Part shown: piece by piece, positions 2,657 through 7,831 of the stretch | Layout of the letters: each line of letters opens with the position of its first letter | How positions within the stretch are numbered: position 1 is the stretch's first letter | IMG/VR virus record: IMGVR_UViG_2713896776_000004 | Length of the DNA: 7,927 bases | Origin: a virus | Taxonomy: Duplodnaviria; Heunggongvirae; Uroviricota; Caudoviricetes | Reading direction: 5' to 3' (one strand) | Position numbers and translations under genes: made by a program | Notes under the pieces: generated by a model | Database searches by the model: none | The model's input: only the letters and a program-made list of their open reading frames with translations | Told to the model about the DNA's origin: nothing

Positions 2657-2962
2657 TTATCGACAGGTCAGGTCACCGCTCACCCGCCGACGAGAAAGCA
2701 ACACTGACATGCTAAAGCAAAAAATAGATGAATAAGTTGAGTTGTGCATATGTAGCCTGACCGTCACAAAGTATATGGTGTCTGTACCAGTAAGATGATG
2801 GCCGGACTCTTTAAAAACGAGCTGACCTGCACAATACAGGATGGACTTAGCAATGGCTGCTCCTGGCAGAAAGCGGACAGTGATCACCGTTCTTACGACT
2901 ACTTTCTGACTTCCTTCGTGACTTGCCCTAAGCATGTTGTAGTGCGATACTTGTAATGACAT
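2657..2962 (-). CDS. Doubtful 101-aa ORF, possibly the ydfV-equivalent reading frame
   Basis: This is a 101-aa ORF between flxA and relB, co-directional with flxA. Its length and position fit my memory of ydfV in K-12. The composition is poor (Ser/Arg/Val-rich) and the start codon lies inside the relBE operator, so it may not be expressed. Confidence 0.25.
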   Translation of the reverse strand: MSLQVSHYNMLRASHEGSQKVVVRTVITVRFLPGAAIAKSILYCAGQLVFKESGHHLTGTDTIYFVTVRLHMHNSTYSSIFCFSMSVLLSRRRVSGDLTCR

Positions 2963-2986
2963 TTGTAATTACAAGAGGTGTAAGAC
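2923..2986 (+). promoter_or_regulatory. relBE promoter and operator (relO)
   Basis: Operator repeats TTGTAAT-gacat-TTGTAATTACAA lie at 2951-2974; the last 12 nt are a perfect palindrome. A candidate -35 TTGCCC (2923-2928) and -10 GATACT (2946-2951) are 17 nt apart. The promoter elements are tentative. Confidence 0.6.
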
Positions 2987-3226
2987 ATGGGTAGCATTAA
3001 CCTGCGTATTGACGATGAACTTAAAGCGCGTTCTTACGCCGCGCTTGAAAAAATGGGTGTAACTCCTTCTGAAGCGCTTCGTCTCATGCTCGAGTATATC
3101 GCTGACAATGAACGCTTGCCGTTCAAACAGACACTCCTGAGTGATGAAGATGCTGAACTTGTGGAGATAGTGAAAGAACGGCTTCGTAATCCTAAGCCAG
3201 TACGTGTGACGCTGGATGAACTCTGA
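2987..3226 (+). CDS. relB: RelB antitoxin
   Basis: The 79-aa translation MGSINLRIDDELKARSYAALEKMGVTPSEALRLMLEYIADNERLPFKQTLLSDEDAELVEIVKERLRNPKPVRVTLDEL is near-identical to E. coli RelB from memory. Its stop overlaps the relE start (TGATG). Confidence 0.95.
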   Translation: MGSINLRIDDELKARSYAALEKMGVTPSEALRLMLEYIADNERLPFKQTLLSDEDAELVEIVKERLRNPKPVRVTLDEL

Positions 3227-3808: not shown

Positions 3809-3840
3809 AACCCGCTTCGGCGGGTTTTTGTTTTTATTTT
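3809..3840 (+). terminator. Intrinsic terminator of the relB-relE-hokD operon
   Basis: The stem is CCCGC-ttcg-GCGGG, followed by TTTTTGTTTTTATTTT. Confidence 0.8.
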
Positions 3841-3956
3841 CAACGCATTTGAAGTTCTGGATGGTGCCGGAATAGAATCAAAAATACTTAAGTAGCGCGC
3901 AGGGATAAGAGGGATGGTCCCTTAAAGGGGAGAGCTAATTATCCGGAAGGATTCTG

Positions 3957-4208
3957 ATGATGAACATCGAAGAACTGCGTAAAATTTTTTGTGAAGATGG
4001 CCTCTATGCTGTGTGCGTTGAAAATGGAAATATTGCTAGTCATTACCGCATTGTGTGTTTGCAAAAAAATGGGGCTGCGTTAATTAATTATGTGGATGCC
4101 CGAGTGACGGACGGATTTATCTTGCGCGACGGTGAGTTTGTCACTTCATTACAGGCATTGAAAGAGATCGGAATAAAAGCTGGCTTTTCTGCTTTTTCAG
4201 AAGAATAA
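3957..4208 (+). CDS. rem: Rem-like prophage protein of unknown function
   Basis: The 83-aa translation MMNIEELRKIFCEDGLYAVCVENGNIASHYRIVCLQKNGAALINYVDARVTDGFILRDGEFVTSLQALKEIGIKAGFSAFSEE fits my memory of Qin Rem. It has a GGAAGG ribosome-binding site, is AT-rich, and sits immediately downstream of hokD as in K-12. Confidence 0.75.
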   Translation: MMNIEELRKIFCEDGLYAVCVENGNIASHYRIVCLQKNGAALINYVDARVTDGFILRDGEFVTSLQALKEIGIKAGFSAFSEE

Positions 4209-4274
4209 ACTCATCTACAATCTTGCGCGGGGCTGAACTCCCGCTGAGTAACACCGTGCCACCGGAGAAAACCG

Positions 4275-4553
4275 ATGGCACGCAACGCAAAATATTACAA
4301 TCATGATAATTCGACCGTTCTTGCCCACACGCACGAGCGGTATTCTCACGCATTTAAGTCAGACTGGTACCAGCATCCCCCATGCACTGAAGAACAGGCC
4401 GAATGGCTCATTCAGTGTTACCGCAGGCGCGGATGCGAGGTTAAAAAAGCCCTTAGCCTCGACTACCGTCACTGGATAATCTCCGTCAGGCTTCCTTACT
4501 CCGAACGCCCACCGCGTCCGTCCCGCACATTCCAGCAACGCATCTGGAGGTAA
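4275..4553 (+). CDS. Hypothetical small Cys/His-containing prophage protein (92 aa), translationally coupled to the DUF968 gene
   Basis: A GGAG lies 7 nt upstream of the ATG at 4275. The translation MARNAKYYNHDNSTVLAHTHERYSHAFKSDWYQHPPCTEEQAEWLIQCYRRRGCEVKK... has no stops. Its TAA (4551-4553) sits between the GGAGG and the GTG start of the next gene. I could not assign a family. Confidence 0.5.
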   Translation: MARNAKYYNHDNSTVLAHTHERYSHAFKSDWYQHPPCTEEQAEWLIQCYRRRGCEVKKALSLDYRHWIISVRLPYSERPPRPSRTFQQRIWR

Positions 4554-4554
4554 C

Positions 4555-5604
4555 GTGCGGGTATTACTTCGACCTGTTCTGGTACCGGAACTCGGGCTGG
4601 TGATCGTTAAGCCGGGCCGTGAACCCATGCCGGTATTCCACAATACCCGGTTACTGGTGGAGCCGGAACCGAAAAGCATGCGTAATCTGCCGTCCGGGGT
4701 CGTTCCTGCCGCTCGCCAGCCGCTGGTGGAAGACAAAACATTGCTGCCGTTTTTCAGTAACGCACGGGTGATTCGTGCTGCTGGTGGTGCTGGTGCATTG
4801 TCTGACTGGCTGTTGCGCCATATTAAATCCTGCCAGTGGCCACACGGCGATTATCATCACAGCGAAACCGTCATTCACCGTTATGGTACCGGCGCAATGG
4901 TGTTGTGCTGGCACTGCGACAACCAGCTGCGTGACCAGACATCCGAATCACTCGAGCAACTAGCTCATCAAAACCTGTCAGCATGGATGATTGACGTCAT
5001 CGGTCACGCAATAAGCGGTACGCAGGAGCGTGAATTATCTCTGGCTGAATTATCCTGGTGGGCGGTCCGCAATCAGGTGGCGGACGCGCTACCGGAAGCG
5101 GTATTACGTCGTTCGCTGGGGTTGCGTGCGGAAAAAATCCGCTCAATGTACCGTGAAAGCGACATCGTACCGGGAGAGCAGACCGCCACCAGCATACTGA
5201 AACAGCGCACAAAAAATCTTGCACCGTTGCCTCACGCCCACCAGCAACAAAACCCATCACAAGAAAAGACGGTGGTAAGCATCACCGTTGATCCAGAGTC
5301 TCCGGAATCTTTCATGAAGCTGCCTAAACGTCACCGTTGGGTTAAGGAGAAATACACACGCTGGGTTAAGACACAGCCGTGTGCTTGCTGCGGTATGCCA
5401 GCCGACGATCCGCATCATCTGATTGGTCACGGGCAGGGCGGAATGGGAACCAAAGCACATGATCTCTTTGTGTTGCCTTTGTGCAGAAAGCATCACGACG
5501 AGTTGCATACGGATACCGTGGCATTTGAAGAGAAGTATGGCTCCCAACTGGAGCTGATTTTTCGATTTATCGATCGCGCGCTGGCAATTGGTGTGCTGGC
5601 CTAA
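4555..5604 (+). CDS. ydfU: DUF968-family prophage protein with a C-terminal HNH-like motif (YdfU-like)
   Basis: The 349-aa ORF has a GTG start with GGAGG 4 nt upstream. The C-terminus contains CACCG...[10 protein letters not shown]...[10 protein letters not shown] (a Cys pair, His-His and H-x3-H), typical of a beta-beta-alpha-metal HNH fold. A second Cys/His cluster ([11 protein letters not shown]...LCWHCDN) lies near residues 93-122. The size and position after rem match K-12 ydfU. Confidence 0.8.
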
Positions 5605-5621
5605 TTTTGTGGAGTAAGTTG

Positions 5622-5999
5622 ATGCGTGATATTCAGATGGTTCTTGAGCGTTGGGGGGCATGGGCTGCTAATAATCATGAAGATGTGACCTGGTCGTCCA
5701 TTGCCGCCGGTTTTAAGGGATTAATTCCTTCAAAAGTAAGATCTCGTCCGCAATGCTGTGACGATGACGCGATGATCATTTGTGAATGTATGGCTCGCCT
5801 GAAAAAAAACAACAGCGATTTACATGATTTATTGGTGGACTATTATGTCGGCGGCATGACTTTTATGGCGCTTGCACGTAAGCATGGGCGATCTGATTGT
5901 TGGGTTGGCAGGATGCTCCAGAAAGCTGAGGGCGTAGTGGAGGGCATGCTGATGGTGTTGGATCTCCGATTGGAGATGGATGCTGATTGTTCGAAATAA
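5622..5999 (+). CDS. Late-gene antiterminator Q (small phage-21/QuuD-like class)
   Basis: ATG at 5622 with GGAG 6 nt upstream gives 125 aa. The translation [34 protein letters not shown]...[37 protein letters not shown]... matches my memory of the DLP12 QuuD / phage 21 Q family. The ORF-track start at 5607 is a TTG that I consider less likely. Confidence 0.75.
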
Positions 6000-6011
6000 T
6001 TAAAGGAAAAG

Positions 6012-6040
6012 TTGCTGTCTGATTTTCATTAGTCTAACAT
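6012..6040 (+). promoter_or_regulatory. Candidate late promoter PR' (Q-utilisation region)
   Basis: -35 TTGCTG (6012-6017), a 17-nt spacer, then -10 TAACAT (6035-6040). It lies 13 nt after the Q stop and about 60 nt upstream of a strong terminator, as expected for a PR'/qut/tR' module. Confidence 0.4.
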
Positions 6041-6097
6041 TTTAAATGTTGGAATCGCAACGTAGTTATTATCATATAACAGCTTGTTTCCTGATTT

Positions 6098-6154: not shown

Positions 6155-6679
6155 TTATTGTTTAACCCATAATAGTTCATTGACATTGAATCCCAACTTT
6201 TGAGCGGTACGCACATAGTCTGCTTTTACATTATCTGGAATAGTTTGGGTCCTTGCCAGAATCCATAGGTATTCTCTGTTCGGACCACTGACAAGAGCAT
6301 ACTTATACTCATCATCCAGTTTGATTACATTATAGCCACCATAGAAGGGGCCAAAAAACGAAACTTTCAACGCTGCAGTTTTAGTATCTCCAGTAAAGTA
6401 TGCTTTACCTTCGCTCTCGCTCCATTTGTTTTTCGTTGGATCGTATCCACGGTTAAGTACGCGAATCCCTCCGTCGTTCCGTTTTTCATAAGTAGCGCTG
6501 ACCTGTTCCAGACCACGTTCGAACCAGTTCTCGAGGCGAGCTATTTCATACCATTTTCCGAGGTAGCGGTTGGCGTCAAAATTTGTAATCGGCTGCACAC
6601 CTTTAGGTGGTGTCGGGGCCTTACATGCTATAAGAGTGAAAGAGAGTGCAATGCCAGTCAACACAGGCCATAACTTCAT
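6155..6679 (-). CDS. Blc-family bacterial lipocalin, predicted outer-membrane lipoprotein
   Basis: The 174-aa translation has a signal peptide with lipobox LIAC (Cys19). Motifs NFDANRYLGKWYEIARLENWFERGLEQVSATY and GKAYFTGDTKTAALKVSFFGPFYGGYNVIKLD...YLWILARTQTI align with E. coli Blc at roughly half of positions, so it is divergent. The gene is AT-rich. Confidence 0.85.
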   Translation of the reverse strand: MKLWPVLTGIALSFTLIACKAPTPPKGVQPITNFDANRYLGKWYEIARLENWFERGLEQVSATYEKRNDGGIRVLNRGYDPTKNKWSESEGKAYFTGDTKTAALKVSFFGPFYGGYNVIKLDDEYKYALVSGPNREYLWILARTQTIPDNVKADYVRTAQKLGFNVNELLWVKQ

Positions 6680-6871: not shown

Positions 6872-7831
6872 ATGATAAAAAAACCTGTGATTGGGATCAG
6901 CGGTTGTTTGGGCGGTTCTGCTGTTCGTTTTGATGGTGGTCACAAAAGAGATGACTTTTTAATGGACAAATTAGTGGAATGGGTAACATTCAGACCAGTA
7001 TGTCCGGAAATGGCTATAGGGCTGCCAGTTCCGCGTCCTGCTCTACGACTTGTGCGCTCGAAGCAAGGAAATATACGGATGTGTTTCAGCCACGACCAGA
7101 ATGAGGATGTGACAGAGAGAATGACAGAGTTTAGTCGTTCTTATATGGACAAATTAAAGGATGTATCGGGGTTTGTGGTTTGTGCTAAATCTCCCAGCTG
7201 TGGCATGGAGCGCGTGCGTGTCTATGATGAAAATGGTAATCGAGGTCGTAAAGATGGAGTGGGACTATTTACGAGCACTTTGATGGAAAAGTTTTCCTGG
7301 CTACCGGTTGAAGAGGATGGGCGATTACATGATCCAGTGCTTCGTGAGAATTTTATTGAAAGAGTTTTTGCTTTGCATGAGCTCAATCACCTTTACAAGG
7401 AGAAATTATCAAGAAGAGAGTTATTAGCTTTTCATAGTCGTTATAAGCTTCAGTTGTTGGCGCATAGCCAGGCAGGCTATAAAGATATGGGACCATTTGT
7501 GGCTGCAATACACGAGTGGGCGGACCTTGAATCATACTTTGAGGTGTATCGTGATAATCTGATGGCGATTCTCAGAAAACCAGCATCACGTAAAAATCAC
7601 ACGAATGTGCTGATGCATATACAGGGGTATTTTAGTAATTACTTAAGTACACGCCAGCGTAAAGAGTTGAGCGAGGTTATACTTAACTATCGCTTTGGCA
7701 CATTGCCTCTTCTTGCGCCGTTGACTCTGCTGAAGCATTATCTGGGTGAGTATCCTAATGATTACTTGCTTACACAGAATTACTTCGATCCCTATCCGGA
7801 AGAACTGGCTCTAAGACTGATGGTGAATTAA
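6872..7831 (+). CDS. DUF523 (TudS-like Fe-S domain) - DUF1722 (YbgA-like) fusion protein
   Basis: A strong Shine-Dalgarno GGGGGAGG precedes the ATG at 6872. The 319-aa protein begins MIKKPVIGISGCLGGSAVRFDGGHKRDDF, with conserved Cys at 12, 44 (PVCPEM) and 104/110 (CAKSPSCG). The C-terminal half resembles YbgA/DUF1722. The gene is AT-rich. Confidence 0.8.
   Translation: MIKKPVIGISGCLGGSAVRFDGGHKRDDFLMDKLVEWVTFRPVCPEMAIGLPVPRPALRLVRSKQGNIRMCFSHDQNEDVTERMTEFSRSYMDKLKDVSGFVVCAKSPSCGMERVRVYDENGNRGRKDGVGLFTSTLMEKFSWLPVEEDGRLHDPVLRENFIERVFALHELNHLYKEKLSRRELLAFHSRYKLQLLAHSQAGYKDMGPFVAAIHEWADLESYFEVYRDNLMAILRKPASRKNHTNVLMHIQGYFSNYLSTRQRKELSEVILNYRFGTLPLLAPLTLLKHYLGEYPNDYLLTQNYFDPYPEELALRLMVN

Follow-up and report, generated by a model that had tools for sequence, protein, structure and literature searches.

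The window analysed here, a 7,927-nucleotide stretch of viral DNA (IMG/VR record IMGVR_UViG_2713896776_000004), is of the type of the Qin cryptic lambdoid prophage of Escherichia coli, with the gene order rem, small open reading frame (ORF), ydfU and Q. We propose that two separate genes, both part of the recombination ("ninR") segment of the prophage and transcribed together toward Q, lie between rem and Q: an unnamed gene of 92 codons and ydfU, which encodes a 349-aa protein with a DUF968 domain. With moderate confidence, they can be regarded as two independent nin-region genes, one for an HNH nuclease and one for an accessory small protein, coupled by operon architecture. The substrate of YdfU and the role of the small protein are much less certain than this overall picture, and the small protein seems to be neither a partner nor an inhibitor dedicated to DUF968.

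The small ORF is a real gene under purifying selection. It is intact in essentially all of 163 viral-contig loci fetched with the small protein or a divergent relative as query, with a length of 273 or 279 nt, and its ratio of nonsynonymous to synonymous substitution rates (dN/dS) is 0.21 overall (pairwise Nei-Gojobori, 76 distinct alleles). When the alignment is read in the five other frames, the values are 1.1–1.8 in four and 0.32 in the remaining one, a reverse frame. A preliminary description of this DNA had allowed that the ORF might not be conserved in homologous prophages, which is not what these loci show. By segment, dN/dS is 0.65 for codons 1–26, 0.11 for codons 27–66 and 0.056 for codons 67–92.

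The AlphaFold2 model of the small protein is confident from residue 28 on (predicted local distance difference test, pLDDT, 90–98) and of low confidence for residues 1–27, the predicted secondary structure being β(28–33), α(39–51), β(55–60), β(67–75) and α(84–91). The match to phrog_1212 (E 5.1e-36) places profile positions 1–66 of this 66-residue model on residues 27–92. An exhaustive profile search of 1.84 billion cluster representatives yielded 73 relatives, most of them 66 aa long and aligning to residues 28–92. As modelled, the Escherichia protein would consist of a conserved 66-aa basic β-α-β-β-α core and a lineage-specific, probably disordered extension of 26 aa. The family is basic (net positive charge in 31 of 33 members, median +4); Y49 alone is invariant, and F32, L45, D63, V69, L73, P74 and the penultimate W91 are conserved at 90% or more.

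The label "Cys/His-containing", given to this ORF at the outset, is true of the copy in the window but is no family property: the 66-aa relatives do not keep C37, C48 or C54, nor most of the His residues. No conserved Cys or His column is found across the family, and a set of three to four Cys/His ligands is absent from the alignment, indicating that the small protein is unlikely to bind metal; on this basis its candidacy as a zinc protein was ruled out. PHROG 1212, the family that contains the small ORF, is of unknown function. The protein has no match in Pfam, NCBIfam or PADLOC, and a sequence-profile search of the PDB gave chance matches only. Its sole significant fold match in BFVD is "Orf QD1" of phage N15 (E 1e-3), itself a family member; the N15 ORF (NC_001901.1, 35939–36151) has Q (gene 40) and gene 41 as its neighbours and carries no annotation in RefSeq, the name "orf QD1" coming from the older, partial record U45242. 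STM1021.1n of Gifsy-2 and gp51 of mEp237 are 36–39% identical to the small ORF product over the core. Whereas the Escherichia protein has the 26-aa N-terminal extension and ydfU as the next gene, the Gifsy-2 and mEp237 versions precede NinG or a YbcO-like gene.

Purifying selection also acts on the second gene, ydfU (dN/dS 0.125 for the whole gene, 0.083 for the HNH domain); about 4% of its copies are truncated. Its product belongs to Pfam DUF968 (PF06147), scoring 258.3 bits against a gathering threshold of 27.8 (E 4.5e-77) and covering the entire profile (1–171 of 171) with residues 160–346, and phrog_96, annotated as "HNH endonuclease", spans the whole protein. The HNHc_6 model (PF16784) stays below its gathering threshold (24.4 vs 26.6 bits, E 2.6e-5, residues 271–328 only); many close relatives of YdfU carry the PF16784 tag in precomputed data. 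A profile search with YdfU also matches YbcO, at E 7e-4. The AlphaFold2 model (mean pLDDT 79) comprises a confident predicted core at residues 61–190, with a β-hairpin (105–118) and a helix (119–125) around C118 and C121, a predicted disordered linker at about 190–260, and a confident C-terminal ββα domain at 265–349.

This C-terminal domain has the predicted fold of the His-Me finger (HNH) nucleases, a ββα unit with the catalytic His at the end of β1 and a metal-binding His/Asn on the α-helix. The motif reads C276-x2-C279, D284-D-P-H287-H288 and C310-x2-H313-H314-x3-H318, with D303 standing in for the Asn of the HNH motif. Over 38 sequences from about 15 genera, C276, C279, H288, D303, H314 and H318 are invariant, and H287 and C310 are conserved at 90% or more. 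The HNH-like arrangement first read from the letters of the DUF968 C-terminus is thus present, conserved and backed by a predicted ββα fold. The assignment of YdfU to the HNH nucleases is supported but already published: DUF968 and DUF1364 form group 7 of the His-Me finger proteins, in which YdfU and YbcO are named (Jablonska et al. 2017, PMC5714182), and the HNH motif of DUF968 proteins was remarked upon by Curtis et al. 2014 (PMC4118853). YdfU is also listed in the y-ome (PMC11551758).

The second Cys/His cluster reported in the preliminary description is likewise present and conserved. Within the N-terminal region (1–190) it occupies residues 93–123 (window positions 4831–4923), with the arrangement C93...H101...C118-W-H-C121-D-N123 on the predicted β-hairpin and helix, outside all Pfam models (DUF968 begins at residue 160). 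The broad alignment shows no variation at C93, H101 and C118, nor does an alignment of 18 sequences at C121. According to the model, this cluster is probably a structural Zn site. The idea that it represents a duplicated HNH unit was rejected, since the comparison of the N- and C-terminal sub-alignments with hhalign gave a non-significant probability of 0.6%, and it is left as a probable Zn site of unknown fold family. The NinB/Orf-like N-terminal domain published for "DUF968" proteins of Listeria and Staphylococcus was not detected in YdfU.

Comparison with characterised proteins places YdfU closest to phage nucleases linked to recombination. The window gene is an allele of K-12 ydfU (b1560, Qin prophage, PF06147, His-Me group 7), being about 90% identical to it, with the same length of 349 aa, rem upstream and Q downstream. 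The YbcO protein of DLP12 (DUF1364, PDB 3G27) is a stand-alone HNH protein of 96 aa, whereas YdfU adds an N-terminal region of 260 residues with the second Cys/His cluster. Structurally, the closest match of the YdfU HNH domain is Ref of phage P1 (PDB 3PLW), a RecA-dependent HNH endonuclease of 186 aa that lacks the N-terminal domain of YdfU. At the sequence level no significant match to Ref was obtained, Ref being absent from the PDB profile search at E <= 1 and YdfU having no match to the Pfam model RecA_dep_nuc. Ref is a recombination-linked nuclease that works with RecA (PMC4330346, PMC3973344). The Gp16 protein of the Staphylococcus aureus phage ΦNM1, an HNH "subclass 6" enzyme, has been shown experimentally to be a nickase that binds RecA and promotes phage propagation (PMC12817073); Gp16 and the "Orf-HNH" proteins of Listeria and Staphylococcus (HNHc_6, PF16784) have the C-x2-C ... 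C-x2-H-H-x3-H layout in common with YdfU. P1 itself, besides Ref, encodes a full-length YdfU homolog, PdcB (AF234173.1, 88636–89559, pdcB), with 26.5% identity over 91% of the query.

On these grounds, ydfU would encode a multidomain DNA endonuclease whose C-terminal ββα-Me (HNH) domain has an intact Zn site and catalytic His. YdfU would most likely nick or cut recombination or replication intermediates during lytic growth, branched DNA and RecA-bound DNA being candidate substrates, and it would take the place held in other lambdoid phages by NinG/Rap, RusA or YbcO. The small protein would most likely be an accessory nucleic-acid-binding or regulatory factor of the recombination module.

The relationship between the two genes depends on the breadth of the comparison. 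Within Escherichia the pair is nearly always adjacent: ydfU follows the small ORF in 161 of the 163 loci. A set of 5,426 complete E. coli genomes has the small ORF at 8,524 places (4,529 genomes) and the 5' part of ydfU at 9,098 places (4,542 genomes). One of the two exceptions is a contig end; the other (L112) was ruled out as a small ORF without ydfU, since the first 14 codons of ydfU remain before a rearrangement breakpoint.

This near 1:1 co-occurrence would suit a dedicated two-protein system, in which the small protein acts as an immunity- or antitoxin-like inhibitor, or as an obligate subunit, of the DUF968 nuclease, and coupling keeps both at a fixed ratio. Such a system would also fit the position of the small gene, which comes first and is tightly coupled as in antitoxin-toxin layouts, the Klebsiella-type pair, which still abuts at only 40–50% identity, and a natural in-frame fusion of the two ORFs (P0129, 438 aa, one contig, joined as ...RTFQQR/MRVLLRP...), which may stem either from a genuine small deletion at the junction or from faulty assembly. 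However, wider sampling makes this explanation unlikely. Among 28 YdfU-type loci from Escherichia, Shigella, Enterobacter, Klebsiella, Kluyvera, Kosakonia, Phytobacter, Buttiauxella and Symbiopectobacterium, the small gene abuts ydfU in only nine; in seven it lies about 355 nt upstream with a RusA gene in between, in two there are degraded copies, and in ten no small-family ORF is found within 3 kb. The inspected ydfU loci that lack the small gene have a gene of the ANT/Rha antirepressor-like or KilA-N type, or RusA, in front of ydfU. A second YdfU subtype common in E. coli and Shigella (329–331 aa, about 57% identity; SfV orf45, Shiga toxin 2c (Stx2c) phages, and L181 and L197 from Shigella flexneri) is preceded by RusA and a KilA-N/ANT-type gene and never by a small-family ORF. 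Among records of sequenced phages, 185 contain a YdfU homolog and 62 a member of the small family.

The small family, in turn, occurs next to other nuclease genes in loci without DUF968. Its distant members were found by exact-protein look-ups and tblastn in phage records. Besides YdfU, which follows in Escherichia and in the Klebsiella type, the downstream gene can be RusA (L171, L164 and the Kosakonia/Kluyvera type), NinG/Rap (Gifsy-2, SPN3UB, Klebsiella ST16-OXA48phi5.1, Edwardsiella GF-2) or a YbcO-like HNH gene followed by RusA (mEp237, phiES15), and in Hafnia Pocitis76, Erwinia vB_EhrS_59 and Enterobacter vB_Ecl_MII_001 NinG follows at a distance of one to four genes. In phages of the N15 type, the small gene adjoins an RdgC-like gene. 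Upstream there is usually a gene for an Orf-like mediator (DUF1367 or YbcN), and DinI is often close by. A metagenomic contig (L165, 375–3431) carries the genes for RecA, a hypothetical protein, a LexA_DNA_bind protein, the small protein and DUF968, so that a phage-borne recA stands beside a Ref-like nuclease module.

Obligate co-occurrence, as in a toxin-antitoxin or nuclease-immunity pair, is thus not seen across the families. Since each is found without the other, the small gene is a recurrent ninR component, placed just 5' of the junction nuclease gene that a given phage has, and not a DUF968-specific partner; nor does its product match any known defence or toxin-antitoxin family in the three databases searched. 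A part in phage-phage conflict, suggested in the preliminary description, finds no evidence, PADLOC having returned no match. Of the coupled expression of a "two-protein unit" suggested there, coupling is made plausible by geometry and a predicted hairpin; a dedicated unit finds no support, given the ten loci without the small gene and the occurrence of the latter beside other nucleases.

At the junction, the Shine-Dalgarno (SD) sequence of ydfU, GGAGG (4546–4550), arises from TGG-AGG, the final two sense codons of the small ORF, and the stop codon lies 1 nt before the GTG start. The TAA had been correctly read as standing between the SD and the GTG of the DUF968 gene. The same 1-nt gap is kept in 156 of the 161 loci with ydfU downstream, TGGAGGTAACGTG being almost invariant, and, judged from these sequences, conservation of the junction is far above chance expectation. 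In the Klebsiella-type pair the two genes overlap as TGATG. The downstream SD and start therefore abut the upstream stop, as in coupled gene pairs, and do so in homologs, which makes translational coupling plausible from geometry. Gaps of -14 to +7 nt are usual for all adjacent nin genes in seven phages, so the tight spacing reflects general operon architecture and nothing special to this pair. Coupled pairs of the nin region (ATGA or TAA-N-ATG) share with it an SD inside the upstream ORF, the 1-nt stop-start spacing and a start predicted to be masked by the upstream coding sequence; tight spacing is common to all neighbours in the seven phages and not specific to the small ORF and ydfU.

A hairpin is predicted over the junction. 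The arm CCCGCAC-A-UUCCAG (4522–4535, codons S83–Q87) pairs with CUGGAG (4544–4549, ydfU SD) and GUGCGGG (4555–4561, ydfU start), with a free energy (ΔG) of -17.8 kcal/mol over 50 nt (z -2.2; 9 of 300 dinucleotide shuffles are as stable). Nearly all Escherichia-type junctions (27 variants, closely related to each other) keep it, stem changes being mostly C to U, which retains G·U pairing; a small number of rare variants lose a pair or have a shifted fold, and third-codon positions in the loop vary freely. In the Escherichia lineage, translation of ydfU would probably depend on ribosomes finishing the small ORF: because the SD and the weak GTG, which lie in or just after the last codons of the small ORF, are predicted to be paired with these codons, an upstream ribosome would unmask both.

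Such an arrangement raises the alternative that the small ORF is mainly a cis-acting leader, whose translation opposes Rho termination and unmasks the ydfU SD while the peptide itself is functionless. The embedding and predicted pairing of the ydfU SD and start in the 3' end of the ORF, the strong Rho terminator reported in the interval (see below) and the low dS of the last 26 codons (0.34 vs 0.82 mid-ORF) would agree with it. It is nevertheless very unlikely, in that the core protein sequence is strongly constrained (dN/dS 0.06–0.11, with synonymous changes present), a confident independent fold of this core is predicted, and the family is kept at 30–45% identity in other genera, including uncoupled contexts; behind the small gene of PY54 and L167 come a gap of 48 nt and a separate SD. 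The penultimate Trp is retained even where it can have no role in an SD (L167, L170), indicating a constraint at the protein level. Conserved RNA structure as the main cause of the invariant C-terminus was accordingly judged only partly tenable, the hairpin being lineage-specific and the W-x-stop ending being kept without coupling.

That both genes are decaying, functionless prophage ballast, kept because the prophage is young or by hitch-hiking with relBE and hokD, is most improbable: Qin is a cryptic prophage, its neighbourhood contains an insertion sequence (IS) fragment and rearrangements, Rho silences transcription and some ydfU copies are truncated, but dN/dS is well under 1 for both genes at dS values of 0.4–0.8, and both families occur in inducible, plaque-forming phages (HannyBb, mEp460_ev081, PPompW phages, Gifsy-1/2, mEp237).

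With respect to expression, the stretch "upstream of ydfU" in K-12 has been reported to rank with the strongest Rho-dependent terminators acting to silence prophage genes (PMC9160355). Between rem and ydfU, MG1655 has a gap of 346 nt (NC_000913.3, 1644305–1644650, minus strand; 2806–3151 of locus L201) that contains no curated coding sequence. The 92-codon ORF and the GGAGGTAACGTG junction are intact there, and the Prokaryotic Genome Annotation Pipeline (PGAP) annotates the ORF, as a hypothetical protein, in other genomes; the reference genome thus lacks an annotation for the small gene. In the lysogen this gene is probably poorly expressed, and by analogy with lambdoid phages it would be expected to be expressed on induction, as part of the early rightward transcript once antitermination is active.

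Several observations weigh against the interpretation as two functional, coupled genes of a recombination module. The Rho terminator suggests that the small ORF is little translated in the lysogen. The hairpin outdoes shuffled sequences by a modest margin only, its 141-nt context is not unusually stable (z -0.76), and divergent coupled junctions give mixed values (z -2.9 and -1.9 in two Klebsiella-type loci, +1.1 in L165). The mosaic synteny of lambdoid phages can reflect positional inheritance rather than shared function. Finally, our literature search yielded no biochemical or genetic experiment on YdfU or on the small protein.

Concerning the role of the small family as a whole, its positional association suggests, as far as gene order can, an accessory role in phage recombination. 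A more specific version, in which the phrog_1212 protein acts generally as an accessory to the junction-processing nucleases of phages and licenses or restrains whichever nuclease follows (NinG/Rap, RusA, YbcO-like HNH or YdfU), is speculative and in our estimation rather unlikely. The protein could then bind branched or RecA-coated DNA, or a host recombination protein, and such a role would explain both its slot 5' of four unrelated or distantly related nuclease families and the kept coupling.

The coordinates of the features discussed are collected in the table. The preliminary description had located the pair in the nin region upstream of Q, a position that proved correct. Window positions 3900–6050 match E. 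coli strain S1 (NZ_CP010226) at 100%, where RefSeq gives the order rem, hypothetical protein (279 nt), ydfU (DUF968 domain-containing protein) and antiterminator Q family protein; the order rem-like gene, 279-nt ORF and DUF968 gene is also found in K-12-like genomes and in O157:H7 prophages. The Q product downstream of ydfU is of the 125-aa PF06530 type in the window, whereas K-12 has the 250-aa YdfT.

Features of the window (all on the + strand)
Feature	Positions	Details	Evidence
rem	3957..4208	upstream neighbour, 66 nt before the small ORF	RefSeq annotation; phrog_340
Shine-Dalgarno GGAG of the small ORF	4263..4266	8 nt before ATG	read from sequence
Unnamed 92-aa gene, phrog_1212 family	4275..4553	ATG at 4275; 92 codons; TAA at 4551–4553	phrog_1212 match, dN/dS, AlphaFold2 model, profile search
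Predicted RNA hairpin	4522..4561		folding, ΔG -17.8 kcal/mol
Coupling junction GGAGG-TAA-C-GTG	4546..4557		sequence; identical spacing in 156/161 loci
ydfU, 349-aa DUF968 protein	4555..5604	GTG start at 4555; 349 codons; stop at 5602–5604	Pfam DUF968; AlphaFold2 model
HNH motif core	5380..5508	C276-x2-C279 and C310/H314, putative Zn ligands; H288, putative general base; H318, putative metal ligand	conservation; Gp16-like layout
Antiterminator Q gene	5622..5999	ATG at 5622, 17 nt past the ydfU stop	Pfam Phage_antitermQ, E 8e-51; RefSeq annotation

The genes upstream in the window are flxA, ydfV, relBE and hokD. An ORF of 271 aa (870–1685, +) corresponds to the C-terminal two-thirds of an ISNCY-family transposase (NF033594, E 1.5e-70, profile positions 160–365 of 368). 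The stretch 730–1537 has no alignment to S1 and the rest of the window matches S1 at 99.97–100%; the source strain of the window therefore differs in IS content upstream of flxA. Directly downstream of Q lie a gene for a Blc-type outer-membrane lipocalin (NF007786, E 6e-94; 6155–6679, -) and a YbgA/DUF1722-like gene (6872–7831, +), which in S1 precede the lysis genes of the prophage and are cargo at the place where Stx phages carry the Stx genes. A σ70 promoter-like site, TTTTCA-16-TACAAT (9 of 12 matches; 4194–4221, +), is present between rem and the small ORF, and a terminator-like hairpin 3' of hokD (3809–3826, +). The region contains six promoter-like and seven terminator-like consensus matches, against shuffle means of 2.9 (about 1.5 and 2.3 standard deviations above, respectively).

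The module is already known and very abundant in prophages, ydfU and the small ORF amounting to roughly 8,500–9,000 copies across the complete E. coli genomes, with Stx-phage backgrounds among them, and the finding is largely ordinary; current understanding is not overturned by any of these results. Two modest points are new: the unannotated small gene of K-12, in an interval that the literature treats as untranslated, Rho-terminated RNA, and the position of the small family before four junction-nuclease families. Ref and Gp16, the nearest characterised relatives of YdfU, both work with RecA, which points to a RecA-linked assay for this protein. The fixed position of the small gene is a lead on an unstudied component of the recombination modules of lambdoid phages.

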